This document shows, one piece after another, positions 4,465 to 24,003 of a stretch of DNA of 48,198 nt. Origin of the DNA: an uncultured Oscillospiraceae bacterium (GTDB taxonomy: Bacteria; Bacillota; Clostridia; Peptostreptococcales; Anaerovoracaceae); contig CAYOYO010000001.1 of assembly GCA_964408195.1 (NCBI GenBank), positions 2,479 to 50,676 of the forward strand. The letters are read 5' to 3'. The notes below the pieces were generated by a model. It had not been told where the DNA came from. It made no database searches and saw only the letters and a list, made by a program, of their open reading frames with translations. Both the position numbers and the translations under genes were made by a program. The number at the start of each line of letters is the position of its first letter. Positions within the stretch are counted from its first letter, which is position 1.

Positions 4465-4490
4465 GAGAAAATCGAAAGGAGAAACGGCCC

Positions 4491-5684: not shown

Positions 5685-6931
5685 GGTATGCCTGTCTTAC
5701 GGTAGGAGTGCAAAACACAGATATTCGGACTTGCGCGCAAAAGAATGCCAGCGAAGAGAAGCTGAAGGAGTTGATTTCCCACAACCTGACGTCTCTTGAA
5801 AACATCATAGATTACAACATCAAAAACGATATTTTGCTCTTTCGTATCAGCTCCGACCTGATTCCCTTCGGCTCAAGCCCAGTGAACCGGATCCCCTGGT
5901 GGGATTTGTTTCGCCACCGCCTCCAAGTAATCGGAGAGAAAATAAAAAGCCACGGCATGCGGGTATCCATGCATCCCGGACAATACACTGTGATTAATTC
6001 CCCCCATGAGGATGTGGTTGAACGATCAATTACTGACCTGGACTACCATGCCCGTGTTTTAGAGAGCCTTAACCTTAACCGGGAACACAAGATCATTCTC
6101 CACATCGGAGGGATTTACGGCGACAAAGGACAGGCCATAAGAAGATTTGAAAAGAGTTACAAGAAATTGACGGAGCCGGTCAAGGAGAGGCTTGTCATAG
6201 AAAATGATGACAGGTCTTATACCATTTCCGATGTACTGGAAATCGGAACCAAAATGGGTATCCCCGTAGTGTTCGACAACCTTCACCACAGAGTGAACCC
6301 CAGCCTTGAAAAGGAGACAGATGCTTTTCTTATCAACGCGTGTAAAAACACCTGGAAGAAGGAGGATGGTCCCCCAAAAATCCATTATTCGCAGCAGGAT
6401 CGGACGAAAAAGCCGGGAGCGCATTCGTCAACCATCAAGATTGATGAATTCCTCCGATATATGGACAATCTGGGGGAAATGGCACCGGATCTCATGCTGG
6501 AAGTCAAGGACAAGAATTTATCTGCCTTAAAATGCGTCAACTGCATGGGGAAGGACAAAAGGATTTTAGTACTTGAACGGGAATGGGGTCGCTATAAATA
6601 CAGTGTCCTGGAGAAAGCGCCCGCCGCCTACCAAGAAGTTCGCAACCTCCTTAAGGACAAAGACCAATACCCGGCTCTCGATTTTTATCACATATTGGAA
6701 GAAGCTCTCAATCAGCCGGAAGCTCCCGGTAATACAGAAAATGCAGCCCTCCACGTCTTCGGGTATTTTAAGGAACTGGCAACGATTAAAGAAAAGGACC
6801 GGTTTTTCCGACTTCTTGACTCCTACAAGCAGGGGAAGATTCACTCTCGGAGTATGAAAAATCTGTTATGGATGTTAACCCAAAAATACGGACAGCCTTA
6901 TCTTTTGGATTCCCTTTATTTTATTCTTTAA
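5675..6931 (+). CDS. uvsE: UV damage endonuclease UvsE with a roughly 120-aa C-terminal extension
   Basis: The N-terminus MRIGYACL..G, FRISSDLIPF, MHPGQYTVINSP, ILHIGG, ENDD and MLEVKDKN match the UvdE TIM-barrel family. It overlaps the upstream gene by 10 nt. Confidence 0.85.
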   Translation: MRIGYACLTVGVQNTDIRTCAQKNASEEKLKELISHNLTSLENIIDYNIKNDILLFRISSDLIPFGSSPVNRIPWWDLFRHRLQVIGEKIKSHGMRVSMHPGQYTVINSPHEDVVERSITDLDYHARVLESLNLNREHKIILHIGGIYGDKGQAIRRFEKSYKKLTEPVKERLVIENDDRSYTISDVLEIGTKMGIPVVFDNLHHRVNPSLEKETDAFLINACKNTWKKEDGPPKIHYSQQDRTKKPGAHSSTIKIDEFLRYMDNLGEMAPDLMLEVKDKNLSALKCVNCMGKDKRILVLEREWGRYKYSVLEKAPAAYQEVRNLLKDKDQYPALDFYHILEEALNQPEAPGNTENAALHVFGYFKELATIKEKDRFFRLLDSYKQGKIHSRSMKNLLWMLTQKYGQPYLLDSLYFIL

Positions 6932-10046: not shown

Positions 10047-10078
10047 ACGGACAACCCACTATTAAGGGGAGAAGATTC

Positions 10079-12787
10079 ATGAAAAACGGAAAAACCGGCT
10101 TTACAATAAAAAGGATCATTTTACTCACCTTTACAGCCTCCTTATTGGTTTCTTTCGCCTGCTGCGGAGCGGTAATCTTTTCAAACTGGATCACCTCTTC
10201 AATGGAAGCGGCGGCGGCCACGTCGGCGGAAATCAACGAAGATTTGCGTGAACGGGTGATCGCTTTTATGGAGGTGCCTTATCATCTCAATGATATGAAC
10301 CATAAAATCATCGAAAACGGAATGCTTGATTTGTCCCTTGCCACTGAGCGGGAGAAATTTTTTGCCGGTGTGTTGAGTTCAGTGAAGGAGGATATCTACA
10401 GCTTTAGTTACGGCACTACAAAGGGAGAATACTACGGCGCCAGGCGAAATGAGAAGGGTCAGATTGAAATCATGAGGAATGACGCCTATACAGGAGGAAA
10501 TTCCTGGTACTATGCGATAAAGGACGATTTAACAGCGGGGGCGCTTTCGGTTCAGGCAGGTCCATTTGATCCACGTACCAGAGCCTGGTATAAAGCGGCT
10601 GTTGAAGCCGCGGGGCCGGTTTTCTCCCCTATCTACAAGCATTTTGTCATGAATGATTTGACGGTATCTGCTGCATGGCCCGTCTACGATGATGGGGGAG
10701 AACTTTCGGGAGTATTGGGAACCCACCTGCTTCTGTCGGATATGGGTGCATATCTACAAAATGCAGTTACCAAATATGAGGGGATCGCCGTCATTATAGA
10801 AAAAAGTACCGGCCTGCTTATCGCAAATTCAATGGGCGTAGATAATTTTACCATGGGGAAAGATGGGACTCCGGAGCGTTTGGGGTTGGATGCTCTGGAC
10901 AGCGAAGATTTAAAAAAAGCCTACGAGGAATCTTTCATCACGGGCAAATCTCTTCAAAAGGTTTATAAAGGTAAGCTGGACAACTTTTTTTTAGACACAT
11001 CGGAGATACAAATGGAGGGAATCCAATGGATTCTCATTTCCGCTATTCCCCAATCCACGTTTTTGGGGGATGCAATGACCGGCATGGGTTGGGCGGCCCT
11101 TCTGGCCATTGTATTTTTCATATTATCGGTTTTGACCTATCATCTGATTATGAGGAAGTTCTTGAAGCCTATGTATCAATTGCTCCGGATATCTGAACAA
11201 TTGGCCGCCGGAGATCTGACAAAAAGAGCTCAAATCGTAAGAGAAGATGAAATCGGATTTCTCGCAAAAGGGTTCAACAGCGTGGCAGATAAGATGCAAT
11301 CTCTCATAGACAATCTGGAAGCAACGGTGGAGACGCGTACCCGTGAGCTTACCGAAGCAAATCTGGCCTTGCAGGAAAGCAAAGACCAGCTTCGGCTGAT
11401 CCTGGATTCCGCTGCAGAAGCCATTTATGGCATCGATCTTCAGGGAAACTGCACCTTCTGCAATGCCAGCTGCATAAAAATACTGGGGTACAGCAGCCAG
11501 GAAGATTTACTGGGAAGAAATATGCATTGGCAGATTCACCATACAAGAAGAGACGGGACTCCTTTCCCGATTGATGATTGCAGTATTTTCAAAGCCTTTC
11601 TGAAAGGGGAAGGTTCCCATGTGGACGAAGAGGTGTTCTTTAGGGCCGACGGCACTTCCTTTGATGTGGAATACTACTCCTATCCCCAGATTAGGGATGG
11701 AAAAATAATCGGCGCCGTCATCACCTTTATGGATATCTCAGACCGGAAAGAAAGAGAAGCGGAAATTGAATACCTGAGTTGTCATGACCCGCTGACGAGT
11801 CTCAAGAACAGGAGGTGTCTGGAGGACAATCTCCCTAAAATCGACATAACCGACAATCTGCCTCTTTCAGTTATCTTTGGAGACATCAATGGCCTAAAGA
11901 TGACAAACGACGTGTTCGGACATGCCGCCGGTGATGAATTGATTAAAAAATCGGCGGAGATCCTGCAGCAATCCTGCAGAGACAAGGATACCGTAGCACG
12001 CATGGGAGGAGACGAATTTATCATCCTTTTGCCCAAAACCACCGGAGAGAATGCACAAAAGATCATTGAGCGTATCCGAGCCGGATTTGAAGACGCCCAT
12101 GTAGAGGCGATCAAGTGCAGCATCTCACTGGGTCTTGACACAAAGACAAGCTCGGAACAACCCCTGGACGAGATTATGGGAAACGCAGAAAACGCTATGT
12201 ACAGGGACAAGACCATGAATCGAAAAACCATAAATGCCACCATCATCGATACCTTGCTGAAATCCCTGCATACCGCTTGCCCTAGGGAAAAACAACATTC
12301 GGAAGCTGTCAGCAGTCTATGCGAAGAAGTGTGTTCTACTCTCGGCCTTCCCGAAACAGAAATAGCTACCCTGAAACGAGCAGGATACCTTCACGACATC
12401 GGAAAAATCGTGCTGGAGAAAAACATGCTCTTCAAGGATTCACTCAACGACTTAGAAATGGAAAAAATGCAGCAGCATTCCGCCGTGGGCTATCGGATTC
12501 TCAGTCTCTTTGACGATACGTTGGACCTGGCCGAACTTGTGTACGGACACCACGAGAGGTGGGATGGAACCGGTTATCCCAGAGGATTGAAAGAGAAGCA
12601 GATTCCCTTGCTTTCAAGAATCATCGCGGTGGTGGAGACTTACGACCGGGTGGTTAACAGGGGAATCTTGTCTTTCAATGAAAGAAAAAATGATGCGCTG
12701 GAGGTTATAAAATCCGGTGCGGGGACCCAGTTCGACCCGGAAGTCGCCGCTGCATTTCTCCGGGAGATCAAGAAATCTGCAGTGTGA
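10079..12787 (+). CDS. Membrane sensor protein: Cache-like domain, HAMP, PAS, GGDEF and HD-GYP (both a c-di-GMP synthase and a hydrolase domain)
   Basis: It has an intact GGDEF (ARMGGDEFIILLP) preceded by HDPLTSLKNRR. The HD-GYP signatures are YLHDIGK and HHERWDGTGYPRG. I prefer the ATG at 10079 (RBS AAGGGGAG) over the track's TTG at 10037, which overlaps the upstream gene. Confidence 0.85.
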   Translation: MKNGKTGFTIKRIILLTFTASLLVSFACCGAVIFSNWITSSMEAAAATSAEINEDLRERVIAFMEVPYHLNDMNHKIIENGMLDLSLATEREKFFAGVLSSVKEDIYSFSYGTTKGEYYGARRNEKGQIEIMRNDAYTGGNSWYYAIKDDLTAGALSVQAGPFDPRTRAWYKAAVEAAGPVFSPIYKHFVMNDLTVSAAWPVYDDGGELSGVLGTHLLLSDMGAYLQNAVTKYEGIAVIIEKSTGLLIANSMGVDNFTMGKDGTPERLGLDALDSEDLKKAYEESFITGKSLQKVYKGKLDNFFLDTSEIQMEGIQWILISAIPQSTFLGDAMTGMGWAALLAIVFFILSVLTYHLIMRKFLKPMYQLLRISEQLAAGDLTKRAQIVREDEIGFLAKGFNSVADKMQSLIDNLEATVETRTRELTEANLALQESKDQLRLILDSAAEAIYGIDLQGNCTFCNASCIKILGYSSQEDLLGRNMHWQIHHTRRDGTPFPIDDCSIFKAFLKGEGSHVDEEVFFRADGTSFDVEYYSYPQIRDGKIIGAVITFMDISDRKEREAEIEYLSCHDPLTSLKNRRCLEDNLPKIDITDNLPLSVIFGDINGLKMTNDVFGHAAGDELIKKSAEILQQSCRDKDTVARMGGDEFIILLPKTTGENAQKIIERIRAGFEDAHVEAIKCSISLGLDTKTSSEQPLDEIMGNAENAMYRDKTMNRKTINATIIDTLLKSLHTACPREKQHSEAVSSLCEEVCSTLGLPETEIATLKRAGYLHDIGKIVLEKNMLFKDSLNDLEMEKMQQHSAVGYRILSLFDDTLDLAELVYGHHERWDGTGYPRGLKEKQIPLLSRIIAVVETYDRVVNRGILSFNERKNDALEVIKSGAGTQFDPEVAAAFLREIKKSAV

Positions 12788-13084
12788 GGACGTTCCGTTC
12801 CTTGCAAAGAAAAATGCAGAAAAAATGGGAACACACAGGACAATTTCACCTTGGCCATTGAAGAAAAAGGTACAGCATTCAGTAAGATGCGATGAAACCT
12901 TTAATCGAGGATTTCAAATCTCCAGAATTTTAATCTCAACATTTACAGGAAAGAAATTTTGTGGTAAAGTCAAAAGCATATTGCATTATTGTATACATGT
13001 TTTTATTTTGGACTCATGGGGTTTGTTTCGGTTTGAAGGCCCAAGCCGTTTTCCTACTTCATGAGTCCCGGCGAGGAGTTACTT

Positions 13085-14650
13085 ATGATTGGAGACAAAG
13101 GACAAATACTGATTGCGATGGTTCTGTACATCGCTGTAGTAATCGGGATCGGCGTTTACTACGCAAAGAGAGCGGGGGAGAGCAGCCACAATTACCTCAT
13201 CGGAGGCAGATCCCTGGGACCCTGGATTACCGCTATGGGAGCAGAAGCTTCGGATATGAGCGGCTGGCTTCTCATGGGCTTGCCCGGTGTAGCTTATTGG
13301 TACGGGTTAAGCGATGCGATCTGGACAGCCATCGGACTGCTGGTCGGAACCTACCTGAACTGGCTCTTTGTATCGAAGCGATTGCGGAACTATACAGTCA
13401 TTGCAGGAGATTCCATAACGATTCCCGACTTTTTCAGCAACCGTTTCAGAGAGAAGAAAAAAGTGCTTATGACCATAGCTGCCTTGTTCATCTTGATTTT
13501 CTTCACCGTGTACGCAGCCAGCTGTCTGGTAACAGTGGGAAAACTGTTCAGCACCTTGTTTGATGTGAAGTATCAATACATGATGATTGCGGGAGCTGTA
13601 TTTGTTGTCTGTTATACATATATTGGCGGGTTTCTTGCTGAAAGTGCCTCGGACTTCATGCAGGGCATCGTCATGTTCTTTTCTCTTGCCATCGTAATGA
13701 TTGCGGGTGTAACCACCGCGGGCGGAGTGTCTGCAGTGATTGAAAATGTACAACAGATCCCCGGATTCTTTGAATTTTTCGGCATTGCCCAACCGGTTAT
13801 GGCGGAGGGTGTCCAGCAAGTAGGAGAAGGAGGCATGCCGCTCTTTGGCGACAGGGCCTCTTACGGGCTTCTTACCATCATTTCTACCCTTTCCTGGGGG
13901 TTGGGATATTTCGGTATGCCCCAGGTGCTCTTGAAGTTCATGGCTATTAAAAATCCCGGAGAACTGAAGATGTCCAGGCGCATCGCTACAATCTGGTGCG
14001 CCATATCGCTGATGGCAGCGGTTTCCATCGGCATCATCGGCAGGGCGCTGTATCCGGATGCTTTCCTGACCCAGGGCTCAGCAGAGAGTATTTTCATCCT
14101 GCTTTCCACAAGCTTTTTCCTTCCGATTGTAGCGGGTGTTGTAATGGCAGGTGTTCTGGCAGCCACAATCAGTTCTTCCGACTCCTACCTGCTCATCGCT
14201 GCCTCCGCATTTTCCAAGAATATCTTTCATGGATTGCTGAAAAAGGATGCTTCCGACAAGGCGATTCTCCATAGCACCAGAATTACTCTCATCGTTATAG
14301 CCATATGCGCCATGATTATTGCACTGGACGAAAACAGCGTTATTTTCACGGTAGTCTCCTTTGCCTGGGCCGGGTTCGGTGCCACCTTCGGCCCCACCAT
14401 GCTCTTTTCCCTCTTCTGGAAACGAATCACCAGAGCGGGGGCGATTGCAGGCATGCTCAGCGGCGGCAGTATGGTCTTTTTGTGGAAGCTGGTGCTGAAA
14501 CCCATGGGAGGAATCTTTGGAATCTATGAACTGTTTCCTGCATTTGTTACATCCTGTCTATTTATAGTCATCGTGTCCATGCTTACGAAAGAGCCGGATG
14601 AGAAGATCCTGAAGGAATTCGAAGCAGCGAAAAAGGTCAGTTCAAACTAA
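13085..14650 (+). CDS. putP: Sodium:proline symporter (SSS family)
   Basis: YLIGGRSLGPWITAMGAEASDMSGWLLMGLPG closely matches my recollection of E. coli PutP. It is polytopic throughout. The ATG at 13085 has a GGAGG-like RBS; the track start at 13061 is less likely. Confidence 0.85.
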   Translation: MIGDKGQILIAMVLYIAVVIGIGVYYAKRAGESSHNYLIGGRSLGPWITAMGAEASDMSGWLLMGLPGVAYWYGLSDAIWTAIGLLVGTYLNWLFVSKRLRNYTVIAGDSITIPDFFSNRFREKKKVLMTIAALFILIFFTVYAASCLVTVGKLFSTLFDVKYQYMMIAGAVFVVCYTYIGGFLAESASDFMQGIVMFFSLAIVMIAGVTTAGGVSAVIENVQQIPGFFEFFGIAQPVMAEGVQQVGEGGMPLFGDRASYGLLTIISTLSWGLGYFGMPQVLLKFMAIKNPGELKMSRRIATIWCAISLMAAVSIGIIGRALYPDAFLTQGSAESIFILLSTSFFLPIVAGVVMAGVLAATISSSDSYLLIAASAFSKNIFHGLLKKDASDKAILHSTRITLIVIAICAMIIALDENSVIFTVVSFAWAGFGATFGPTMLFSLFWKRITRAGAIAGMLSGGSMVFLWKLVLKPMGGIFGIYELFPAFVTSCLFIVIVSMLTKEPDEKILKEFEAAKKVSSN

Positions 14651-14683: not shown

Positions 14684-14704
14684 CTTGGCGTATTGTGTAA
14701 GAAG

Positions 14705-14746
14705 AAGGGGAAATTTCCGAAATGCCGGGGATTTCCCCTTTTATTT
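14705..14746 (+). terminator. Intrinsic terminator-like hairpin
   Basis: A 10-bp stem (aaggggaaat / atttcccctt) with a 16-nt loop, followed by ttatttg. Confidence 0.5.
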
Positions 14747-14781
14747 GTCTATGGAAAAAACTTGCCTGACAACCTGACGGT

Positions 14782-14810
14782 TTGTAAAATTTTATTGAAG
14801 AGAATATAAC
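14782..14810 (+). promoter_or_regulatory. Putative sigma-A-type promoter for the response-regulator / fibre locus
   Basis: TTGTAA, a 17-nt spacer, then TATAAC. It lies about 40 nt upstream of the TTG start at 14850. Confidence 0.3.
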
Positions 14811-14849: not shown

Positions 14850-15467
14850 TTGAACATTCTCATTGTAGATGATCAACCTCTTTTGAGGAAAGGAGTTTCA
14901 CAGGTGTTGCTGTCTGAGAAAGGCGGCCAGCATTTCGCAGAGGCGGCAACAGTAGCCGAAGCCATAGAAATCCACAAGAAAAACCCGGCGGATTTGATTT
15001 TTCTCGAGTTGCATCTGATAGACGGAAGCGGGTTTGACCTGATTAGCAGCGTCCGTGCTCTTCCGGGAAAATCCCCGAAATTCATGTTGTTAGCCTCATC
15101 CATCAGCGTCTTTGAGTTTCGGAGGGCAAAAGAACTGGATGTGGATGGGTATCTCCTGAAGGAGGCAGATGGGGATGAGTTGAAATACGCATTTAGACAA
15201 ATCCTTCGGGGAGAAAAATATTATCCTTCCAGGTTGGTAGAAAAAGCCTTAAGCGGAAGGGAGGCAGACGGTATACGTCTCCTGACGGACAGGGAGATGG
15301 ATGTGCTGGCAGAGCTGAGCAAGGGGTTGACCAATTCACAAATCGGAGACAATTTGTATATCTCAGAAGGAACGGCAAAAAAACACATCAGCAACATTTT
15401 ATCGAAGCTGAATTTATCAAACCGCATGGAAGTACTGGTGTATGCCAGTAAATTATCCGGCAAATAA
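14850..15467 (+). CDS. Orphan NarL/LuxR-family response regulator with an atypical receiver (Glu at the phospho-acceptor position)
   Basis: The receiver is MNILIVDDQPLLRKG...DLIFLELHL, and the C-terminal LuxR HTH is REMDVLAELSKGLTNSQIGDNLYISEGTAKKHISNILSKL. The start is TTG with a GGAGG RBS. No histidine kinase gene is adjacent. Confidence 0.85.
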   Translation: MNILIVDDQPLLRKGVSQVLLSEKGGQHFAEAATVAEAIEIHKKNPADLIFLELHLIDGSGFDLISSVRALPGKSPKFMLLASSISVFEFRRAKELDVDGYLLKEADGDELKYAFRQILRGEKYYPSRLVEKALSGREADGIRLLTDREMDVLAELSKGLTNSQIGDNLYISEGTAKKHISNILSKLNLSNRMEVLVYASKLSGK

Positions 15468-15518
15468 TAAAAGAAGAATTGCCATGATTGGTTTCCTTAG
15501 GATCCACCGGAGGAGAAG

Positions 15519-16307
15519 ATGAAAAAGATATTCAGCAGAGCGGGACTTCTGTTCCTGGCAGCAGCCACCATGGGAATGCTTGGAGTCAGCTATGCAGGTT
15601 ATACCGACAGTTTGAAAGTGGATACGGAGCTGTCCGCAGGAAGCATGAGCTTTGAATTCATGGACAGCGGGAAGGACCGGGATTTTATAATTGGCATACA
15701 AGAGAGCGAGAAAGAGAAGGTTACGAAGCTCGATGCAAAGATAAACTACGACGGAAAGACTCTTACCATCACGGATATGGATCCCATTGATATGTCTTTT
15801 TTAAAGAATGGGAAGTTGCAAATCCTCATCCGTTATATTGTGGAAGTCACAGAAGAGGAGAGTGTTCTAATGGCGGCGAGTATCATAGAAAAGGATCAGA
15901 GAAGCTACCTGGGAGAGATTCCTTTTCAGCTTATATCAAGTACGCCCCTGTGGTCTATAGAAGGCAAATCTGCAAGCTGGGGATTGGGAGATGGAGACTT
16001 GGGCGGGGTTCCGCAAGTCATTTATGAGCTTCTTCCTCAAACTCTGGCAAACTTCCGTGCATCTCATACCCTATGGTTCAATGAGAAAAAGGATAGGATG
16101 GAGGGAACCATTCTTTTGGAACAAATAGACATTCCAAAATTACTATCCATTAAAAAAGTAGAACTGAGTGCTTTTGGTTTACCGGATGATATTCTAAAAG
16201 AAATGGCTGCAGAGAAGAAGCTGAACCTGACTATGGTAGGCAGCTATGGTTTCGAAATCCCGCTGGTCCTGGATCAATTCAATGCAGAAGGGGAGGGATT
16301 GTTATGA
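15519..16307 (+). CDS. Secreted protein with a SipW-cognate-type signal peptide (candidate fibre or accessory subunit)
   Basis: The N-terminus is MKKIFSRAGLLFLAAATMGMLGVSYAGYTDSLKV: a basic n-region, an h-region, then the YAGYTDSL junction shared with the two paralogues. The C-terminal LDQFNAEG resembles the WDQFNVG of the 18057 protein. The RBS is GGAGGAG. Confidence 0.7.
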   Translation: MKKIFSRAGLLFLAAATMGMLGVSYAGYTDSLKVDTELSAGSMSFEFMDSGKDRDFIIGIQESEKEKVTKLDAKINYDGKTLTITDMDPIDMSFLKNGKLQILIRYIVEVTEEESVLMAASIIEKDQRSYLGEIPFQLISSTPLWSIEGKSASWGLGDGDLGGVPQVIYELLPQTLANFRASHTLWFNEKKDRMEGTILLEQIDIPKLLSIKKVELSAFGLPDDILKEMAAEKKLNLTMVGSYGFEIPLVLDQFNAEGEGLL

Positions 16308-16732
16308 ATCGCAGAAAGCTGATAATAGCCATATCCGCAATGATTGCAATGACTTATGCAATCGTTTCCACCAGCTACGGATACTGGACGGACCAGCTTC
16401 ATATATCCGGTGAAGCCGGCTTTGTGTTTCAAATACCTGTGGTGAACGATGTTAAAATGCCGTTGGAGATACCTTTGGAAGGAATGAGCGCACTTGTAAT
16501 AGAGACGAACAGCGATGAGCCGGAAACAGGGATTGAACCAACGGAGGATATTCAACCGGAAACGACTCCGGAAACAGAAGAACAAACAGCCCCGGTAGCA
16601 GAAGAACAAACAGATCCGGCAATAGCGGATGAAGGGGATGTGGAGACAAGGCCTGTTACAGTCGATGAGAAACAGCCGGAATCTACAGAAGCAGAAGGAT
16701 CAGCAACCGATGAAAGTGCAGAACTACAATAA
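16304..16732 (+). CDS. Small secreted protein with a SipW-cognate-type signal peptide and an acidic Glu/Pro/Thr-rich tail
   Basis: The N-terminus MNRRKLIIAISAMIAMTYAIVSTSYGYWTDQLHI carries the same junction motif at the same residue positions (25-32) as the upstream protein. It overlaps the upstream stop in an ATGA. The C-terminal half is low-complexity and acidic. Confidence 0.65.
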   Translation: MNRRKLIIAISAMIAMTYAIVSTSYGYWTDQLHISGEAGFVFQIPVVNDVKMPLEIPLEGMSALVIETNSDEPETGIEPTEDIQPETTPETEEQTAPVAEEQTDPAIADEGDVETRPVTVDEKQPESTEAEGSATDESAELQ

Positions 16733-17921
16733 ATATCGAAGAATCAGCAACCTATTGCTGATTCTCTTTATAGGAATTGCTCTGCTGCCTTATCTTGTTG
16801 AACTGGCACAGGGCAGTTCTTATCAATTGGCCCGGAAAGTGATTCCGGCAATCTGGTGTGCTTTTTTAGTCATAATGTTCTTTTTTGTTCCAAAAGTCCA
16901 TGCGGCCAGCAGGCTGGTGAAGCGGGATACAATTTATATGGAAGCGGTGATCTGTGCGGTAATCCTCATCTCAGCCAGGATATTATTGGGATCCATGCTG
17001 GGCCAGCTGGGCTCCAGCCCCTATGACCTGTCTCTCTCCGGAATTGCCGGAAATCTGTTCTTTGTTTTGCCGGCTATGGCTGCCAGAGAGGTCATACGGA
17101 GCTATGTGCTGGGCACCTATTGCAGTGTACATAATTTGAAGGTATTTATCTTTATCACTTTGCTGATGACCGTTTCCGGCTTGAATTATTCCAACCTGTT
17201 GCTGGTATCTGACATGGAGGAAATGTCCATATTTCTTGCTAAGGAAGCAGGCCCTATGCTTTGCCAGAATATCATGCTGTCTTACTTGGCCCTCTACGGC
17301 GGCCCCATAGCTGCAATCCTGTATGGAGGTATTTTGGAACTCTTCCACTGGATTTCTCCTATACTTTCCTCACTGAACTGGTTGGCGGAAGGTGCTGTGG
17401 GTATTCTCGTCCCCGTGGGCTTTATCCTTTTTCTCATAGGGAAATACGAAGAACAGAAGAATCGATCCAAGACTCTGAAAGAGCGAAAAGGAGGGCTGGT
17501 GGGATGGTCTGCCACCGCGCTTTTCTCCATAGGTCTTCTCTGGTTTATCGCCGGTGTCTTTCCCATCGTACCCTCTGTGGTGGTCACCGGTAGTATGGAG
17601 CCGCTGATCTACCCGGGGGATGTGATACTTTTAAAGCAGATGAAGACGGAAGAGCAAATGCGCAGCCTCCATGCCGGAGATGTGATTCAATTTCAAAGAG
17701 ATGAGATCCGCATCACCCATCGTATCGTAGAAATCCTGGATGATGGTATCGGAAATCTGACATTTCGCACCAGGGGAGACAACAACTCTGCTGAGGATAG
17801 CCGGCTTGTTCATCCAAATGATATTAAGGGGGAATTGGTTCAAGTGATTCCAAAGATCGGTTATCCGTCTCTTTTCATCAAGGGGTCCGGCCAAAAGGAA
17901 ACCGGAGATTTTGAATTCTGA
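16710..17921 (+). CDS. sipW: Signal peptidase I, SipW/ER/archaeal type, fused to an N-terminal polytopic membrane domain of about 270 aa
   Basis: The C-terminal domain has VVTGSMEPLIYPGDVILL (Ser codon 17592-17594), RITHRIVEI (His codon 17718-17720) and TRGDNNSAED. These closely match the B. subtilis SipW boxes as I recall them. About 7 hydrophobic segments precede the peptidase anchor. I prefer the start at 16710 (MKVQNYNKY) over the track's 16629. Confidence 0.8.
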   Translation: MKVQNYNKYRRISNLLLILFIGIALLPYLVELAQGSSYQLARKVIPAIWCAFLVIMFFFVPKVHAASRLVKRDTIYMEAVICAVILISARILLGSMLGQLGSSPYDLSLSGIAGNLFFVLPAMAAREVIRSYVLGTYCSVHNLKVFIFITLLMTVSGLNYSNLLLVSDMEEMSIFLAKEAGPMLCQNIMLSYLALYGGPIAAILYGGILELFHWISPILSSLNWLAEGAVGILVPVGFILFLIGKYEEQKNRSKTLKERKGGLVGWSATALFSIGLLWFIAGVFPIVPSVVVTGSMEPLIYPGDVILLKQMKTEEQMRSLHAGDVIQFQRDEIRITHRIVEILDDGIGNLTFRTRGDNNSAEDSRLVHPNDIKGELVQVIPKIGYPSLFIKGSGQKETGDFEF

Positions 17922-18056
17922 GCCTACCTCCAAAGGAGTAGGGAAATGGGCAGAAAGGAAACCGTAAGATTGAACCTCCAGGTAATTTTGAGGTGATTGT
18001 CATCGGTATATAATAGCTTCAGGTGAAAACCAATAACTTCAAAAGGAGAAACGGAA

Positions 18057-19025
18057 ATGAAGAGAAAAGTATTAGCATGTGTTCTTGCTTGTGCGATGTT
18101 GTTCCTGGGCATGGGGTACGCCTACTGGACGGATAGCCTGCAAATCGACAATGCAGTAACCACAGGGGAGCTTCAAGTAAAATTTGTTGACCTGGCTCTC
18201 TATGGCCAGTATGCCGGACAGGACAACGAAAAGTCATGGGCAATTATCGATGGTGTGGGTACGCCGGGCTATGTAGACAACTATTTCTTTGATCGGGGCG
18301 ATGAAAACAACGGCAATGGATTATACAATATCATTGCAACCCCAGCTGATCTAGCTGCCTACAATGCCAGAGTACACGGATTTACACAGACTGACTTTAC
18401 TGCGGCTTTGGATGACCCCCAAAAGATGGATGTAGTTGTTGGCCCTTATGGACTAAACACAGATTCTTCCAGTAAAATCAACATCGCGATTAATAAGATG
18501 TATCCCGGTTATGCACAGGTCTTCCAGGCTGACATCGTCAATGTGGGAACCATAGCTGCAAAACTCAGCGACATCGATGTTGCTGTTACCGACATGCCCA
18601 ACAACGATATTAAAAGCATGATTGGTGTATCTCTTAGAGTGCTCAGGGAATACGCGGGAACTGAGGGGCATGTTGATGTATTCTCAACATTAGATCTTCC
18701 CACATCTGCTTACTTCACCCTGGGCGGCGTTTGCTTCATCCGTCTCTCCGCTCTGGAAAGCCTGAATTTGGCCAGCGTGATCGACAGATCTCACGACCTC
18801 CTCTATATCACACCGGATGATGATAACAGGATGGACATTTATCTGGGAATCGCCATGGATCCGGATGAAGATGGTGTTTATACCAGCGGTATTTCCAGCG
18901 ACCTGTCCGGTAAGTCCGATGACAGCACAGAGAATATCAATACAGCCAAATTCAATCTGAACTTCTTATGGGATCAATTCAATGTTGGAGTTCCCGTGGG
19001 AGGAGACCACATTCATTTAGAGTAG
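18057..19025 (+). CDS. TasA/camelysin-like secreted protein with a SipW-cognate-type signal peptide; probable major subunit
   Basis: The N-terminus is MKRKVLACVLACAMLFLGMGYAYWTDSLQI. The internal MYPGYAQVFQADIVNVGTIAAKL resembles the TasA-family PGD...N.G strand motif. It has a strong RBS (AAAGGAGA), its own upstream intergenic region, and a perfect hairpin downstream. Confidence 0.7.
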   Translation: MKRKVLACVLACAMLFLGMGYAYWTDSLQIDNAVTTGELQVKFVDLALYGQYAGQDNEKSWAIIDGVGTPGYVDNYFFDRGDENNGNGLYNIIATPADLAAYNARVHGFTQTDFTAALDDPQKMDVVVGPYGLNTDSSSKINIAINKMYPGYAQVFQADIVNVGTIAAKLSDIDVAVTDMPNNDIKSMIGVSLRVLREYAGTEGHVDVFSTLDLPTSAYFTLGGVCFIRLSALESLNLASVIDRSHDLLYITPDDDNRMDIYLGIAMDPDEDGVYTSGISSDLSGKSDDSTENINTAKFNLNFLWDQFNVGVPVGGDHIHLE

Positions 19026-19064
19026 ATTCGATAAATGCAACGACTACAGTGAAATAGAAAAGCC

Positions 19065-19098
19065 ACAGGGTGCCTTAAACTCCTTTAAGGCACCCTGT
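19065..19098 (+). terminator. Perfect 15-bp hairpin between the major-subunit gene and the next gene (attenuator or partial terminator)
   Basis: acagggtgccttaaa, loop ctcc, tttaaggcaccctgt. No T-run follows. Confidence 0.45.
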
Positions 19099-19136
19099 CA
19101 TTACCGAAGATGATGCGATGAGAAACGGGGTAAGAT

Positions 19137-20177
19137 ATGAAACTCACATTACATAAAAAGACAAAGAAATATATCTTGGCCATCCTGCTCTTTCTTCTGC
19201 TCTTTACGGCAGTCCAAACATATAATACCGTGAAAAACCAGGAGATAGTCACAGAAGAAAAAGTCATTTTCGAATACAGTTGTGAGCAGGCTCTGGATTA
19301 CAGTGTAAACATCCGGCCCAATGAACTGTATCCGGGAACCGTGCTGGAGGAAGGGAACTATTACAGCAAGCTACTGCTGGACAACATTCAGGCACATTTC
19401 ACGATTGATTATGAGAGCAGTGACTCTACGCCTATCAAGATAGAGTACCAGGTTATTGCAAGGGTGAACGGTTATCAGGGTCAGGCGCCGGAGCAAACGA
19501 TCTATTGGTCTAAAGATTTTCCGCTGATACAAAATAAAATTGTTGAGATAGAAGAAAATAGCTGGACCGGAGAAGAGCAGATTCGTTTTACCTTAGGGGA
19601 ATATGACGCATTTGCCGTGAGAGCAAAGGAAATCTCAGGGATGAAAGTATCCAATGAGGTTGTGGTAGAACTGTTTGGCACCATTACTGCCATGACGGAA
19701 AGCGAGGAAGTGGCAATTCCCCTTTCTTCTTCTCTGCAAATTCCTCTGCTGGAAGATGTGTTTCAGGTGACCAAGAATGCAGGAGAGGCGATTCAAGGCT
19801 CCGTAAAGCAGACAGAAGAAACCATCCTTCCTTTTGACCGTACAAAAGTTTCTCTGTTAGCCGTACTCATGTTGTTAAATGTGGCCGCAATACCCGTGCT
19901 CATGGTTGTGATTAAGGAGCCGGATGAACTCACCATCCAGCGGAGAAAAAACAATGGGCTCATTCGGAATTATGGCAGTCGTCTGGTGGCAATGAAAGAA
20001 ATTCCTGCTCAGGAGTACAGGGGGCTCTATCAGGTGCATAGCATCAAAGACATGATTAAGATTGCCGATGAAATGCAGAGACCGATTTTCTATATTCCCG
20101 ACGATACCACGCTTTTGCGAAACAACGAACTCTTTCTTATCAGTGAAAATACCCTTTATCGATGGAATTCCGCATGA
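19137..20177 (+). CDS. Bitopic membrane protein of unknown function (architecture resembles DUF5305, from recollection)
   Basis: An N-terminal TM (ILAILLFLLLFTAV), an external domain of about 210 aa, a second TM (VSLLAVLMLLNVAAIPVLMVVI), and a cytoplasmic tail of about 90 aa. It is the last gene of the SipW locus. Confidence 0.6.
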   Translation: MKLTLHKKTKKYILAILLFLLLFTAVQTYNTVKNQEIVTEEKVIFEYSCEQALDYSVNIRPNELYPGTVLEEGNYYSKLLLDNIQAHFTIDYESSDSTPIKIEYQVIARVNGYQGQAPEQTIYWSKDFPLIQNKIVEIEENSWTGEEQIRFTLGEYDAFAVRAKEISGMKVSNEVVVELFGTITAMTESEEVAIPLSSSLQIPLLEDVFQVTKNAGEAIQGSVKQTEETILPFDRTKVSLLAVLMLLNVAAIPVLMVVIKEPDELTIQRRKNNGLIRNYGSRLVAMKEIPAQEYRGLYQVHSIKDMIKIADEMQRPIFYIPDDTTLLRNNELFLISENTLYRWNSA

Positions 20178-20200: not shown

Positions 20201-21448
20201 TCAGAGCTCCGGAACAGTTATGCGACCTGCAATGGCGCTGGCTGCAGCCACTGCGGGAGAAGTCAGATAGATCTCCACCGAGGCCGGTCCCATACGACCC
20301 AAGAAATTTCTGTTGTTGGTAGCTACCACACGCTCTCCTTCGCTGAGGATGCCGCCGCTCCTCCCACAGCAGAGGCCACAGCCCGGATGTGTTACAATCG
20401 CGCCGGCTTGCAACAGGGTTTCAAGAATGCCTGCCTGGGAAGCTTCACGATAAACTTTCCGGCTTGCAGGAGTTATGATTAGTTTCACATAGTCTGCAAC
20501 CTTTCTGCCATTGAAGATTCTTGCGGCTGTTTCCAGGTCTTCCAGCCTACCGTTGGTGCAGGAGCCGATAAAGACCTGGTCGATAGGCAGCCCCGCAAGC
20601 TCACTTACCGGCTTGATGTGATCCACGGCTGGAGGGCAGGCAAGGACAGGTACCAACTCTTCTGCGTTATAATGGATATGGGCAGTGTAAGTAGCATCCG
20701 CATCAGCAGTAATATCTGGGATGTCTGTTAAAGAGACACCGCAGTAATCGGCGGTCTTTTCGTCGGGAGCGATAATAGCTGCTTTCGCGCCGGCTTCCAC
20801 CGCCATGTTCGCCATGGTCATGCGGGAGGCAATGCTCATGTCGGAAACGGTGGTTCCTGCGAATTCCAGGGCTTTATAATTGGCTCCGTCCGAACCCAGG
20901 TCGCCAATCAAGCGCAGTATGATATCTTTTGACATGACATTGGACGGGAGCTTGCCATCTATGGTCACTCGGATGGTTTCGGGAACTTTTACCCAAAGCT
21001 GGCCCGTACCCAGAATCGCTGCCATCTCCGTATATCCCACACCAGAAGAAAAGGCACCTACGCTTCCGTAGGTAGTAGTATGGGAGTCGGTGCCGAACAC
21101 AATATAGCCCGGCTTCACATGGCCGGCTTCCGGCATCAGCTGGTGACAGATGCCGTCGCTTCGATGGACTTTTCTGATCCCGTATTTCGCTGCAAAGGCA
21201 TCTCCAATTTCAAAGTGCCGCACGTCTTCCACTCTGCTTGTGGGTACGAGGTGGTCATAAATCAAAACTACTTTATCCGGATTCCAGATCTTTGTAAATC
21301 CCATCTCCTTAAATTTGTCAGCGACAAAAGGGATGAAAATATCATGAATCATGACACGGTCCACACTTACCGTCACGATATGGTTTGCGTGAACCGCCTT
21401 TCCTTGCAAGTTGTTCCTGATTATTTTTTCAATGGCTGTATATCCCAT
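20201..21448 (-). CDS. Aconitase-family dehydratase large subunit (LeuC/HacA type), paralogue 2
   Basis: It has VDRVMIHDI, GTDSHTTTYG and NMAVEAGAKA, plus the Fe-S ligand regions GSCTNGR and PGCGLCCG. Confidence 0.85.
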   Translation of the reverse strand: MGYTAIEKIIRNNLQGKAVHANHIVTVSVDRVMIHDIFIPFVADKFKEMGFTKIWNPDKVVLIYDHLVPTSRVEDVRHFEIGDAFAAKYGIRKVHRSDGICHQLMPEAGHVKPGYIVFGTDSHTTTYGSVGAFSSGVGYTEMAAILGTGQLWVKVPETIRVTIDGKLPSNVMSKDIILRLIGDLGSDGANYKALEFAGTTVSDMSIASRMTMANMAVEAGAKAAIIAPDEKTADYCGVSLTDIPDITADADATYTAHIHYNAEELVPVLACPPAVDHIKPVSELAGLPIDQVFIGSCTNGRLEDLETAARIFNGRKVADYVKLIITPASRKVYREASQAGILETLLQAGAIVTHPGCGLCCGRSGGILSEGERVVATNNRNFLGRMGPASVEIYLTSPAVAAASAIAGRITVPEL

Positions 21449-21491
21449 TTCCTATCCTCTCTTATACTCACTGCACGCTGCAGTACTTATT

Positions 21492-21986
21492 CTATCTTAA
21501 TATTATCCCGTTCTTTTTCTTCATGGCCTCTACAAGACCGCCGGCACCGATGATTTCCATGAGATTTTCCGGAAGGGGAGAGATGGGGTACCTATGGCCC
21601 CTGTGCTCGATGAATTGATTCAGACAGACTGTGATGGAATCTCCTTCTTCCACCTGATCGGGCAAACGATCCTGCTCTATGAGAAGGAGTCCGTTATTTA
21701 TGGCATTGCGATAGAAGATTCTTGCGAAGGATTTGGCGATGACGCAGCCCACCTGCAGGCTCTTGATGATCTCCGGCGCCTGCTCCCTGGACGACCCGCA
21801 GCCGAAGTTTTTCCCCGCCACTAGAATATCTCCCGGTTGGATCAAACCGGCAAGTTCCGGTCGCAGTGGAGAAAAAGCGAATTTTCTCATGTCCCCAATG
21901 CTCTTCATTGCCAAATATTCTGTGGGTATGATGATATCCGTATCGATGTCATCGCCCAATAAAAAGACCTTCCCTTTCATCTCCAT
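21492..21986 (-). CDS. Aconitase-family dehydratase small subunit (LeuD/HacB type), paralogue 2
   Basis: It has DDIDTDIIIPTEYL and GKNFGCGSSREQAP. The ATG at 21986 (MEMKGK) has a GGAGG RBS 6 nt upstream; the track start at 22037 is rejected. Confidence 0.85.
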   Translation of the reverse strand: MEMKGKVFLLGDDIDTDIIIPTEYLAMKSIGDMRKFAFSPLRPELAGLIQPGDILVAGKNFGCGSSREQAPEIIKSLQVGCVIAKSFARIFYRNAINNGLLLIEQDRLPDQVEEGDSITVCLNQFIEHRGHRYPISPLPENLMEIIGAGGLVEAMKKKNGIILR

Positions 21987-22036
21987 ATGATTCCTCCATA
22001 TATTACGTATCCGGGCAATGGCACAATCATTATGCA

Positions 22037-23281
22037 TCAGATTGGCGATACGATTTTCCCTGCAAGAGCCGAAGCTGCCACCGTTGCTGCAGATGCCAGA
22101 TAGACCTTTGAATCCTTGTGTCCCGCTCTGCCTTTAAAGTTCCGCGTGCCGGTTGAAATCAATACTTCTCCTTCGCCGATCACACCCTGACAACTGCCCC
22201 AGCAGACGCTGCAGTTGCTGTTCATGATCATTGCTCCGGCATCCATAAAGATGTCCATGAGCCCTTCCTGCAAGGCTTGCAGATAAACACTGTCTGAAGC
22301 GGGGGATATGAGGAGTCTGACATCCGGGTGGATTTTTCTTCCTTTCAGCAGGGATGCTGCGGTGCGAAGTTCCTCGATACGGCCGTTGTTGCAGGAGCCG
22401 ATAAATCCCTGATCAATCTTTATTTTCCCAATGGAATCTACCTTTACCACGTCATCTACATTGTCGGGTATTGCCACCACCGGGTCGATTTTGCCCAGAT
22501 CGTAATAGAACTCTTTTTCATAGACTGCATCTTCATCACTGTAAAAGAGAGCTTTTGGTTCCCGCCTGCAAACGGCCAGGTATTCAGCGGTTTTTTCATC
22601 CGGTTCGAATATACCGGTCTTTGCACCGGCCTCAACGGCCATATTGGTCAACACCATGCGCTCGTTGATACTCAATGCTTTGGCACCTTCTCCGGTAAAT
22701 TCCATCACCTTATAGGTTGCCCCGTCGGCTCCCAGGTCTCCGATGATGGTCAGGATCAGATCTCTGGGATAAACGCCGTCTTTCAGCTGCCCGGTAAGAT
22801 GAAAGCGAAGGGTAGGGGGGACCAGAACCCAGGACTTGCCCGTTACCATGGAATAGAGAAAATCCGTATTGCCCACACCCGTGCCGAATGCTCCCAGCGC
22901 TCCGTAGGTGCAGGTATGAGAGTCCGCGCCGAAAATCAATTCACCGGGACGCACATATTCTTCCATCATAATCTGATGACATACGCCCTTTCCCTCATAA
23001 AAGGCGATTTCATTAGCCTTTGCAAAATCCCTCATCTTTTTGTGGACTGCTGCAGTCTTGGGATTGTCCGCAGGCATATTGTGATCAATGATGAATACCA
23101 GCTTATCCTTGTCGGCAATTCTGGGCTTTTTCAACATCCGGTTGTACATATCGATGGTCAGGTGGGTGGTACCGTCGTTGCTCATCAAACGATCCACATT
23201 CACCGTATGAATTTCTCCCGCTGCCACTTTCTCTATGCCTGCAGCCGCGGCGATAATCTTTTCGCTGATGGTCATTCCCAT
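22037..23281 (-). CDS. Aconitase-family dehydratase large subunit (LeuC/HacA type), paralogue 1
   Basis: It has VDRLMSNDGT, GADSHTCTYG, NMAVEAGAKT, GSCNNGR and CSVCWGSC. Its start overlaps the upstream small-subunit stop (TAATG). Confidence 0.85.
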   Translation of the reverse strand: MGMTISEKIIAAAAGIEKVAAGEIHTVNVDRLMSNDGTTHLTIDMYNRMLKKPRIADKDKLVFIIDHNMPADNPKTAAVHKKMRDFAKANEIAFYEGKGVCHQIMMEEYVRPGELIFGADSHTCTYGALGAFGTGVGNTDFLYSMVTGKSWVLVPPTLRFHLTGQLKDGVYPRDLILTIIGDLGADGATYKVMEFTGEGAKALSINERMVLTNMAVEAGAKTGIFEPDEKTAEYLAVCRREPKALFYSDEDAVYEKEFYYDLGKIDPVVAIPDNVDDVVKVDSIGKIKIDQGFIGSCNNGRIEELRTAASLLKGRKIHPDVRLLISPASDSVYLQALQEGLMDIFMDAGAMIMNSNCSVCWGSCQGVIGEGEVLISTGTRNFKGRAGHKDSKVYLASAATVAASALAGKIVSPI

Positions 23282-23766
23282 TATTCTGCATCCTCCTTGT
23301 TGAGAAACTCCAAAAGGCCGCCTTCATCCAGGATACTCTTCATGTAGGGGGGCAGCTTGGTACAGACAAGTGTTCGATCTCCGGTTTTGATGAGTCCTTC
23401 TGCTAAATCCAGCTCTATCACATCATCCTGGGAGATTGCCTCATAGGCATCTTTTGAAATAATGGCAGGAAGTCCGATGTTGATGGCATTTCGAAAGAAA
23501 ATTCTGGCAAAAGACCCGGCTACAACGGCACGAATACCCAATTCCTTTAATACTCTGGGTGCTTGCTCCCTGGAAGAACCGCAGCCGAAGTTCTCCCCGG
23601 CAACGATTACATCACCCACCCCTACTTTTTGAGCAAAATCTTTGGTCAGCGGCTCAAACGCATAAGCCTTCATTTCTTCGATTGATGGCAGCAGCAGGTA
23701 TTGGGACGGTATAATCTGATCCGTATCCACATTGTGATTATATTTCCAGACTCTGGATCTATCCAT
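23281..23766 (-). CDS. Aconitase-family dehydratase small subunit (LeuD/HacB type), paralogue 1
   Basis: It has HNVDTDQIIPSQYL and GENFGCGSSREQAP. The ATG at 23766 (MDRSRVW) has an AGGGAGG RBS; the track start at 23850 is rejected. Confidence 0.85.
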   Translation of the reverse strand: MDRSRVWKYNHNVDTDQIIPSQYLLLPSIEEMKAYAFEPLTKDFAQKVGVGDVIVAGENFGCGSSREQAPRVLKELGIRAVVAGSFARIFFRNAINIGLPAIISKDAYEAISQDDVIELDLAEGLIKTGDRTLVCTKLPPYMKSILDEGGLLEFLNKEDAE

Positions 23767-24003
23767 TTTGATCCTCCCTTTGATATTTCTTTGGCTCGAA
23801 AGGAAGCTCGGTAGACACCTTCCGAAGAATGATATTTTGAAATTATACACTATTTTTTATAAGTATTAAACGGATTCTGTAATACAATTGTAAAATCTTT
23901 TGAAAAGGTCTCCCAGTGTTCATTACAGCTTGCGGGGCAGAGGGGAAGTGGTATAATCGTAAGCAGATGGTTTCAAAATATTTGAAAAAGGAACAGTAGA
24001 ACA

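Follow-up and report, generated by a model that had tools for sequence, protein, structure and literature searches.

A probable AbpX-type donor-strand fibre locus with a fused signal peptidase in an uncultured Oscillospiraceae bacterium

A 48,198-nt stretch of DNA from an uncultured Oscillospiraceae bacterium (assembly GCA_964408195.1, contig CAYOYO010000001.1, positions 2,479 to 50,676 of the forward strand; the whole stretch is referred to as the window) contains, at 14850-20177, a six-gene cassette that probably represents a bacterial fibre system of the AbpX type, in which subunits of the TasA superfamily would be processed by a fused signal peptidase of their own and joined by donor-strand complementation (DSC). 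An earlier note on this DNA had proposed a fibre or matrix locus with a signal peptidase of the SipW/endoplasmic reticulum (ER) type and TasA-fold substrates, a proposal for which homology, the predicted fold and conservation of synteny provide support. The fibre of AbpX has recently been solved and is assembled by DSC and Ca2+ (bioRxiv 10.64898/2026.01.04.697558, January 2026); the AbpX clade of the TasA superfamily extends over Thermoproteota, Bacillota and Chloroflexota, and its loci carry a dedicated signal peptidase (SPase) I with ten transmembrane (TM) helices, a DUF5305 protein, minor and tip subunits and anchors, with regulatory or cyclic di-GMP (c-di-GMP) genes nearby (bioRxiv 10.64898/2026.01.04.697558). 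Because the window locus fits this description, it is best viewed as a fresh bacterial case of a known cluster type. The six genes encode a response regulator (RR), the peptidase and four further proteins, here called P2, P3, P5 and P6:

14850-15467, + strand: RR, 205 amino acids (aa)
15519-16307, + strand: P2, 262 aa
16304-16732, + strand: P3, 142 aa
16710-17921, + strand: signal peptidase, 403 aa
18057-19025, + strand: P5, 322 aa
19137-20177, + strand: P6, a DUF5305 protein, 346 aa

The features that appear to go beyond the preprint are the fold of the peptidase membrane domain, an invariant E-x-x-R motif within it, a P3 protein made of a donor strand only, an enlarged P5 subfamily and a degenerate regulator.

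P5 is a candidate major fibre subunit belonging to the AbpX clade of the TasA superfamily. Its family comprises at least 283 clusters of proteins of about 320 aa that lack a Pfam domain, and those with a name belong to Clostridia, among them the oral genera Lachnoanaerobaculum, Oribacterium, Peptoanaerobacter and Peptostreptococcus. The conserved motifs of the family are GYAYWTDSL, TTGEL.V.F, MYPGYAQ.F..DI.N.GT.AAKLS, AMDPD and LWDQFN, and Y21, A22, W24, T25 and L28 are kept in all 42 homologues compared. When the family profile was searched against PDB sequences, AbpX provided the sole matches (9sj2, E 0.038; 9rhp, E 0.42). A second profile (A3), built from thirty short (190-260 aa) subunits of related loci that carry the signal-peptide junction described below, matches AbpX 9sj2 at E 3e-18 and TasA (5of1, 8aur) at about 5e-4. 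The P5 family aligns with A3 over its full length (hhalign, 99.9 %, E 3e-31), relative to which P5 has insertions of about 80-100 aa, and by these profile comparisons P5 is homologous to AbpX transitively, via the short subunits.

The predicted structure of P5 is likewise that of a TasA-like jelly-roll. In the AlphaFold2 model (mean predicted local distance difference test score, pLDDT, 76.9), the only Foldseek match below E 1e-3 is the TasA fibre 8aur_A (2.2e-5, prob 1.00), with AbpA 7ueg_A at rank 7; together with the match of the A3 profile to TasA, this gives, for P5, a positive answer to the check on TasA-fold similarity that had been suggested for the secreted proteins. The least confident part of the monomer model is residues 20-34 (pLDDT <50), which cover the cleavage site and the presumed donor strand. 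The authors of the AbpX study describe the same low confidence in their monomer predictions (bioRxiv 10.64898/2026.01.04.697558), and a strand that is disordered in the monomer is as expected of a donor strand.

P5 shares its N-terminal organization with P2 and P3. Each of the three begins with a hydrophobic segment followed by the common junction Y-[A/G]↓x-[W/Y]-T-D (the arrow marks predicted cleavage), which reads VSYA↓GYTDSLKV in P2, TSYG↓YWTDQLHI in P3 and GMGYA↓YWTDSLQI in P5. The predicted sites are A26/G27 in P2 (codon 27 at 15597), G26/Y27 in P3 (codon 27 at 16382) and A22/Y23 in P5 (codon 23 at 18123), and all obey the -3/-1 rule (P5 G/A, P3 S/G, P2 S/A). The three proteins had been singled out for near-identical signal-peptide junctions, and rightly so: in a motif scan of the 187 open reading frames (ORFs) of at least 60 aa in the window, the junction was confined to P2, P3 and P5, and P5 exceeds the cutoff of the NCBIfam SipW-cognate signal model TIGR04088 (22.5 bits vs 19). 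The junction and a C-terminal DQFN motif are also visible as short repeats in the DNA (D8 and D11). Beyond this region the proteins are strongly diverged from each other, as had also been claimed, since BLASTP similarity among them is limited to the first 30-45 residues.

The residues that follow the junction are those of a potential donor strand. In AbpX, the strand residues that matter are W2, E4, L6, L8, A10 and I12, and the clade keeps position 2 aromatic and position 4 acidic (bioRxiv 10.64898/2026.01.04.697558). The mature N-termini of P5 (Y-W-T-D-S-L-Q-I), P3 (Y-W-T-D-Q-L-H-I) and P2 (G-Y-T-D-S-L-K-V) all display this pattern, with the following residues in the corresponding positions:

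P5 mature strand: W2, D4, L6, I8, V12
P3 mature strand: W2, D4, L6, I8, A12
P2 mature strand: Y2, D4, L6, V8, L12

The mature proteins are also acidic (P5, isoelectric point (pI) 4.12 and 14.7 % Asp+Glu; P2, pI 4.51 and 16.9 %; P3, pI 4.05 and 26.7 %), in agreement with the description of the AbpX clade (pI about 4, about 15 % Asp+Glu).

These properties bear on the possibility that P2, P3 and P5 are ordinary soluble secreted or surface proteins, such as camelysin-like proteases or adhesins, that have a specialised signal peptide in common and do not polymerise. The case for their polymerisation is indirect, P2 and P3 have no recognised domains, and TasA/camelysin relatives were formerly annotated as metalloproteases, all of which would accord with this explanation. 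It is nonetheless improbable, given that the sequence of P5 shows neither HExxH nor another evident motif of a protease, that the conserved N-terminal strand of P5 and P3 keeps the donor-strand register of AbpX and is disordered in the P5 monomer model, that P5 shows full-length homology to relatives of a solved DSC fibre protein, and that P3 lacks any globular domain.

P2 and P3 have no match in Pfam or NCBIfam. The P2 family is rare, with 39 representative clusters among 1.84 billion proteins, and its alignment with A3 (hhalign, 96-97.6 %) is driven by the N-terminus, which alone ties P2 to the profile in local mode. In a global alignment the C-terminal Y.F.IP..LDQFN of P2 ('LDQFN') falls in register with the final Q-x-N strand of the subunit family. 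Within the P2 family as a whole, the donor-strand Asp4 lacks conservation. P2, whose core is diverged and whose donor strand is degenerate, is put forward as a candidate for a minor or tip subunit. In P3, the match to the subunit profile is confined to residues 1-36, in the signal peptide and the donor strand; a conserved donor-strand segment some 30 aa long is followed by an acidic, low-complexity tail, and no part is globular. P3 homologues have about 30 conserved N-terminal mature residues followed by acidic tails that vary in length and sequence; within the tail of the window protein lies a 24-nt tandem duplication (16560-16607, 79 % identity). By analogy with TapA, P3 is possibly a nucleator composed of a donor strand and an acidic tail. 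The P3 homologue of the closely related locus L081 (7677-7952; see below), which lies on a MAG contig, contains XX residues arising from N bases, and its short apparent length (88-91 aa) may, because of these undetermined residues, be an assembly artefact.

The peptidase had been assigned to the SipW/ER/archaeal Ser-His type, and this assignment is sound. Its C-terminal 120 residues score 71.2 bits against TIGR02228 (archaeal-type SPase I; cutoff 51.85), and the family profile is far closer to SEC11C (E 1e-17) and SEC11A (E 8e-17) than to Escherichia coli LepB (E > 1), from which it follows that this is an ER/archaeal S26B enzyme. Conservation was assessed on an alignment of 30 homologues and then on 75 sequences from related loci; Ser295 (TGSMEP), His337 (THRI), Asp357 (GDNN) and Asp363 are invariant in all 75. 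The gene most likely starts at 16710, as previously placed; the ORF start at 16629 is improbable, given that full-length homologues, with few exceptions, measure about 400 aa and begin at the position equivalent to 16710. The protein consists of two parts:

16710..17549, + strand: membrane part (residues 1-280), with eight predicted helices and the anchor helix of the peptidase itself
17550..17921, + strand: catalytic S26B (SEC11/SipW-type) domain, identified by TIGR02228, Foldseek and catalytic residues

In the AlphaFold2 model (pLDDT 76.8) the catalytic part matches SEC11A/C in the PDB (7p2p_A and 7p2q_A, E about 5e-4, Foldseek) and is preceded by helices at 6-32, 37-59, 69-97, 109-137, 143-157, 169-197, 199-215, 224-250 and 260-280; with nine long helices and one short one, the prediction of about nine to ten compares with the 'ten TM' of the preprint. 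The large extra membrane domain noticed earlier is real and corresponds to about eight additional helices.

We somewhat favour, from this one model and its Foldseek matches, an Rce1/SpdC-like (CPBP) fold for the membrane domain. The matches are SpdC 6u0o_A (E 0.021, prob 1.00, TM-target 0.54 over 256 columns) and Rce1 4cad (prob 0.92, TM-target 0.42-0.44), with other, unrelated membrane proteins at prob ≤0.28. Residues 1-250 are thus predicted to resemble the eight-TM intramembrane (pseudo)proteases of the CPBP/Rce1/SpdC family (PDB 4cad, 6u0o), with which they also have in common a conserved Glu/Arg motif on the fourth helix. This motif, E127 and R130 (17088-17099), is invariant in all 75 sequences, which come from Clostridia, Bacilli, Chloroflexota and Actinomycetota, a degree of conservation equal to that of the catalytic Ser, His and Asp. 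The motifs of CPBP proteins are EExxxR, FxxxH and HxxxN. The peptidase differs from these in having E-x-x-R instead of E-E-x-x-x-R and in that the His of motifs 2 and 3 is absent or not conserved, the motif-2 His being replaced by T, A or S and H213 being present in 24 of the 75 fused peptidases. A further difference is that a Pfam scan of the 30 aligned peptidases gave no PF02517 match with an E value of 5 or lower, nor any other Pfam family for the N-terminal 280 residues; SpdC and Rce1 were not recovered when the peptidase profile was run against PDB sequences, and a search with the membrane domain alone returned fused peptidases only and no stand-alone homologue, the domain being always fused to an SPase. 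Neither CPBP, CAAX nor Rce1 is mentioned in the text of the AbpX preprint (bioRxiv 10.64898/2026.01.04.697558), and no paper combining CPBP with SipW was found in the literature.

P6 contains a DUF5305 domain (PF17231, E 7.7e-29) and two hydrophobic segments (13-31 and 241-259), in keeping with the published DUF5305 layout, which comprises two TM helices together with one extracellular and one cytoplasmic domain; the earlier description of the 19137 product as bitopic is accordingly not strictly correct. DUF5305 proteins occur as TafG in haloarchaeal tafi clusters, are sometimes fused to SPase, and have been proposed to act as helpers of the dedicated peptidase (PMC11821415, PMC12337348, bioRxiv 10.64898/2026.01.04.697558). 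P6 is therefore a putative accessory subunit of the signal peptidase. An additional membrane protein had been thought to set the locus apart, and such a protein is indeed present, although as a DUF5305 (TafG-like) partner of a kind already noted elsewhere.

A classical Bacillus-type tapA-sipW-tasA operon, or a Clostridium perfringens sipW-bsaA operon, would encode a TasA/camelysin member and an ordinary two-TM SipW, and several observations point in that direction: P5 carries the TIGR04088 signal, has a weak N-terminal match to Peptidase_M73 (E 0.065) and finds its best fold match in the TasA fibre, and the overlap of the P3 and peptidase genes resembles that of tapA and sipW. Against this, the Peptidase_M73 match remains below threshold (13.5 bits vs a cutoff of 22.5) and covers P5 residues 5-42 only; the peptidase falls well short of the SipW equivalog NF046067 (68.8 bits vs 190); it is extended by about eight helices and accompanied by a DUF5305 protein; the profiles prefer AbpX to TasA by about 14 orders of magnitude; and P2 and P3, which match nothing in Pfam or NCBIfam, hence have no TapA-type match. 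We consider such an operon very unlikely. The earlier note had recommended profile searches against the SipW-cognate signal model, DUF5305 and Peptidase_M73, of which the first recovered P5 and the second P6, whereas the third gave only the sub-threshold P5 match and none for P2 and P3. Its parallel with tapA-sipW-tasA and sipW-bsaA holds for the logic of a fibre operon, but the closest family is AbpX rather than TasA or BsaA.

The cassette is widely conserved. In a genome scan that took one genome per species, the fused peptidase was found to be encoded in at least 536 species genomes or loci, and 80 related loci were kept for synteny counts. A DUF5305 homologue stands beside the peptidase in 73 of the 80, usually immediately downstream, a LuxR-type RR homologue lies directly upstream of the cassette in 32, and 140 ORFs across the 80 loci match the P5 profile, most of them 150-250 aa long and frequently with several at one locus. 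One of the loci (L011) belongs to Natronincola peptidivorans, an organism used as a bacterial example in the AbpX preprint. The locus L081 (GCA_002329675.1) has a peptidase 80 % identical to that of the window and the same six-gene order between putP and aconitase genes. Gene order varies by lineage, being peptidase-DUF5305-P5 in the Bovifimicola and Lachnoanaerobaculum loci (L019, L020, L026 and L030), which differs from the order in the window, where P5 lies between the peptidase and DUF5305 genes. In some loci a second, short (164-200 aa) SipW-like peptidase ORF was seen beside the fused one (L016, 12500-13102; L024, 93-587; L065, 3875-4423).

Since the SPase-DUF5305 pair is the most conserved part of these loci, their core could instead be a secretion and processing module, formed by the CPBP-like/SPase fusion and DUF5305, that serves varied substrates and for which fibre subunits are one class of cargo. 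This interpretation could draw on the E-x-x-R motif, which is invariant and has no role assigned, and on the more distant loci in which phmmer with P5 found no subunit (for example L054, L056, L059, L063, L064, L066, L067, L070, L072, L073, L075, L078 and L079). However, the detectable subunits always belong to the same superfamily, as the 140 ORFs matching the P5 profile attest, and those of distant loci may be too diverged for phmmer. In L068, for example, four tandem junction-bearing ORFs (AVGYALFSETLT... type; 4367-6892) upstream of the peptidase were caught by the motif scan and missed by P5 phmmer, so that subunits in distant loci are under-counted by homology. The module is, in our estimation, very unlikely indeed, and an AbpX-type fibre system is retained as the preferred reading.

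Several points weigh against an AbpX-type system and should be set beside the evidence for it. The direct sequence match between P5 and AbpX is weak (E 0.038), and the Foldseek TM-scores of the P5 model are low (0.29/0.37), with part of the shortfall due to its signal peptide, insertions and disordered strand. The body of P2 is linked to the jelly-roll solely by the global alignment, in which the N-terminus dominates. The CPBP-like assignment finds no sequence-level support in the Pfam, PDB-profile and membrane-domain searches. Ca2+ in AbpX is liganded at the strand/groove interface by E4, D18, D46, D48, E52 and E142 (bioRxiv 10.64898/2026.01.04.697558), and, Asp4 apart, these ligands show no clear conservation: in place of D18 the window P5 has Gln and its homologues have E, N or D, and at the offset of E52, ten residues before the Tyr of YPG, the family consensus has Asp and the window P5 has Ser. 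Ca2+ coordination is described as not universal in the preprint itself (bioRxiv 10.64898/2026.01.04.697558). Finally, attachment of a fibre to the cell would be left unexplained, because neither type of anchor was found in the window, LPXTG being absent from the real genes among the window ORFs and the SLH domain from the Pfam scan of nine neighbouring proteins.

Compared with the loci of Pyrodictium abyssi AbpX and its Bacillota and Chloroflexota homologues (9sj2, 9rhp), the window locus has in common TasA-superfamily jelly-roll subunits of acidic composition, an SPase I with about ten helices, DUF5305, extra subunits and a nearby regulator. It differs in the size of P5, which at 300 mature residues is about twice that of AbpX (163), with extra sequence inserted after the first strand and ahead of the YPG strand as well as within the C-terminal half, in the weak direct match, the unclear Ca2+ ligands beyond Asp4 and the lack of a detected SLH or LPXTG anchor, and in having a donor-strand-only P3 and a regulator without phospho-acceptor. 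With B. subtilis tapA-sipW-tasA (8aur) it shares substrates encoded together with a dedicated ER/archaeal-type Ser-His peptidase, the fold of a DSC fibre, and a small upstream gene (here that of P3) that runs with its stop into the start of the peptidase gene and encodes a potential donor of an N-terminal strand, as TapA is in its role as strand-donating nucleator (PMC10151520, PMC9674648). In contrast to that operon, Peptidase_M73 and the SipW equivalog are not matched above cutoff, the peptidase has an extra eight-helix domain and a DUF5305 partner, P3 lacks the Ig-like domain of TapA, and a LuxR-type RR is found in place of SinR/SinI. Haloarchaeal tafi clusters (TafA/TafE pilins, TafD, TafG and TafB; PMC11821415, PMC12337348) follow the same logic of pilin, dedicated SPase, DUF5305 and regulator, and their fimbriae are assembled by strand donation, as proposed here; deletion of TafD abolishes pilin processing and fimbriae (PMC11821415, PMC12337348). 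The tafi pilins, however, have Tat signals whereas those of P2, P3 and P5 are of the Sec type, TafD, with its four TM helices, bears an additional domain at the C-terminus instead of eight helices at the N-terminus, and the tafi regulator is Lrp-like rather than LuxR-type. The layout seen in the window has been described by sequence analysis (bioRxiv 10.64898/2026.01.04.697558), which contradicts the suggestion that this form had not been studied before; the label 'uncharacterised' still applies at the level of the bench, in that no experiments on any bacterial AbpX-type member were found in the literature.

Taken together, these comparisons suggest the following scheme for fibre production. 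Transcription of the cassette would be driven by the regulator, which has lost its phospho-acceptor and probably acts free of phosphorylation. P2, P3 and P5 would be exported by Sec via signal peptides of the SipW-cognate type and cut after Y-[A/G] by the fused peptidase (S26B plus the eight-helix CPBP-like domain), with the two-TM DUF5305 protein taking part. Cleavage would bare an amphipathic N-terminal strand with an aromatic residue at position 2, Asp at 4 and hydrophobic residues at 6, 8 and 12. P5, a large acidic jelly-roll, could then polymerise, each subunit placing this strand in the groove of its neighbour, and Ca2+ at Asp4 may aid its assembly, as in AbpX. P2 would be a minor or tip subunit, and P3, lacking an acceptor domain, might fill an open groove and, like TapA, serve to nucleate the fibre or to cap it. 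A more speculative extension, which we hold to be unlikely, is that the CPBP-like domain (E127/R130) and DUF5305 form an assembly platform in the membrane that holds the donor strand and couples cleavage to ordered polymerisation. Arg130 could then pair with the Asp/Glu that is conserved at position 4 of the mature proteins, and P3 would serve as nucleator or cap. If true, this would amount to an usher- or sortase-like polymerase role for a fusion of pseudo-protease and SPase that is widespread in gut and oral Clostridia.

Donor-strand fibres of the TasA superfamily are emerging as a matrix scaffold common to bacteria and archaea. To our knowledge, structural and genetic work has so far been confined to TasA of Bacillus, BsaA of C. 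perfringens and a small number of archaeal fibres. The AbpX-type cassette of regulator, minor subunits, fused peptidase, major subunit and DUF5305 is common in anaerobic Clostridia, and its products, provided that the fibres exist, are candidates for factors of biofilm formation or aggregation in the communities of gut and mouth. The E-x-x-R membrane domain and DUF5305 offer targets for asking how fibres form without a chaperone-usher system. The locus would belong to a widespread branch, in bacteria, of a fibre family that has been defined only recently, and the CPBP-like domain is a possibly new structural point.

The regulator is a NarL/LuxR-type RR by its Pfam matches (Response_reg, 5.4e-16; GerE, 7.1e-18). 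Its gene has a TTG start with GGAGG 9 nt upstream, and no histidine kinase gene adjoins it. A receiver domain is present but the phospho-acceptor Asp is absent, so that the protein departs from the NarL/FixJ pattern; in an alignment with VraR, Glu53 occupies the position of VraR Asp55 ('FLELHL' vs 'LMDLLM'). Among 33 aligned cassette RRs, that of the window included, the Asp is kept in 30 and is replaced by Glu in the window and in L002 (4304-4924) and by Gly in L081 (6221-6838), where the conserved Lys104 has in addition become Arg. Judged from this alignment, loss of the phospho-acceptor is real and restricted to the sub-lineage of the window, and because nearly all other loci have the Asp, the receiver appears to be degenerating solely there. 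The earlier impression of a phosphorylation-independent regulator is hence upheld as far as the missing acceptor is concerned, from which the protein probably works without phosphorylation, yet it applies to this sub-lineage only. A VpsT-like, c-di-GMP-binding regulator was also considered and rejected. VpsT matches the helix-turn-helix part only, and its c-di-GMP-binding motif, which we take to be W[F/L/M][T/S]R, is impossible in a sequence that contains no Trp.

The arrangement of the genes and their flanks agrees with the earlier account of six co-directional genes between a putP terminator and a convergent operon, all six + strand ORFs lying at the coordinates first given. The stop of P2 and the start of P3 overlap as ATGA, and the 3′ end of P3 overlaps the start of the peptidase gene by 23 nt, so that P2, P3 and the peptidase are closely packed, and a 135-nt gap precedes P5. 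The neighbouring features are as follows:

13061-14650: putP-like gene of an SSF-family transporter, 5′ flank
14703-14742: terminator-like hairpin after putP
14762..14790, + strand: candidate promoter on the 5′ side of the regulator, TTGCCT-17-TAAAAT, with 9 of 12 consensus matches (consensus scan)
19065..19098, no strand assigned: hairpin between the P5 stop and the P6 start (inverted repeat I9)
20201-23850, - strand: aconitase-family block, convergent on the cassette

The promoter is to be taken as a mere candidate, because promoter-like sites are no commoner in the region than in shuffled sequence. A possible internal promoter before P5, with TATAAT at 18009-18014, has no -35 box at 16-18 nt. 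The hairpin at 19065-19098 has a perfect 15-bp stem (100 % complementary) and a 4-nt loop, with no T-run on its 3′ side on the + strand; it may be an element that stabilises the P5 mRNA or a partial terminator that attenuates read-through. Searches of Rfam for riboswitches and other RNAs gave no match in the locus at E ≤ 0.1 and none window-wide at gathering thresholds.

Directly upstream of putP lie the genes of two large c-di-GMP turnover proteins, a PAS-PAS-GGDEF-EAL protein (7218-10046) and a dCache-HAMP-PAS-GGDEF-HD-GYP protein (10037-12787), whose stop and start overlap. Their position matches the trend noted in the AbpX preprint; they are nevertheless not counted as part of the system, since the syntenic stretch of L081 lacks both, as well as the ORF at 5675-6931, and there a tRNA-U5 methyltransferase gene is directly followed by putP. 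The 5675-6931 region is one ORF in which a UV-endonuclease UvdE domain is joined to a C-terminal DUF1722 domain. On the other side of the cassette, the aconitase-family block consists of two tandem pairs, with large subunits of 415 and 414 aa and small subunits of 181 and 189 aa.

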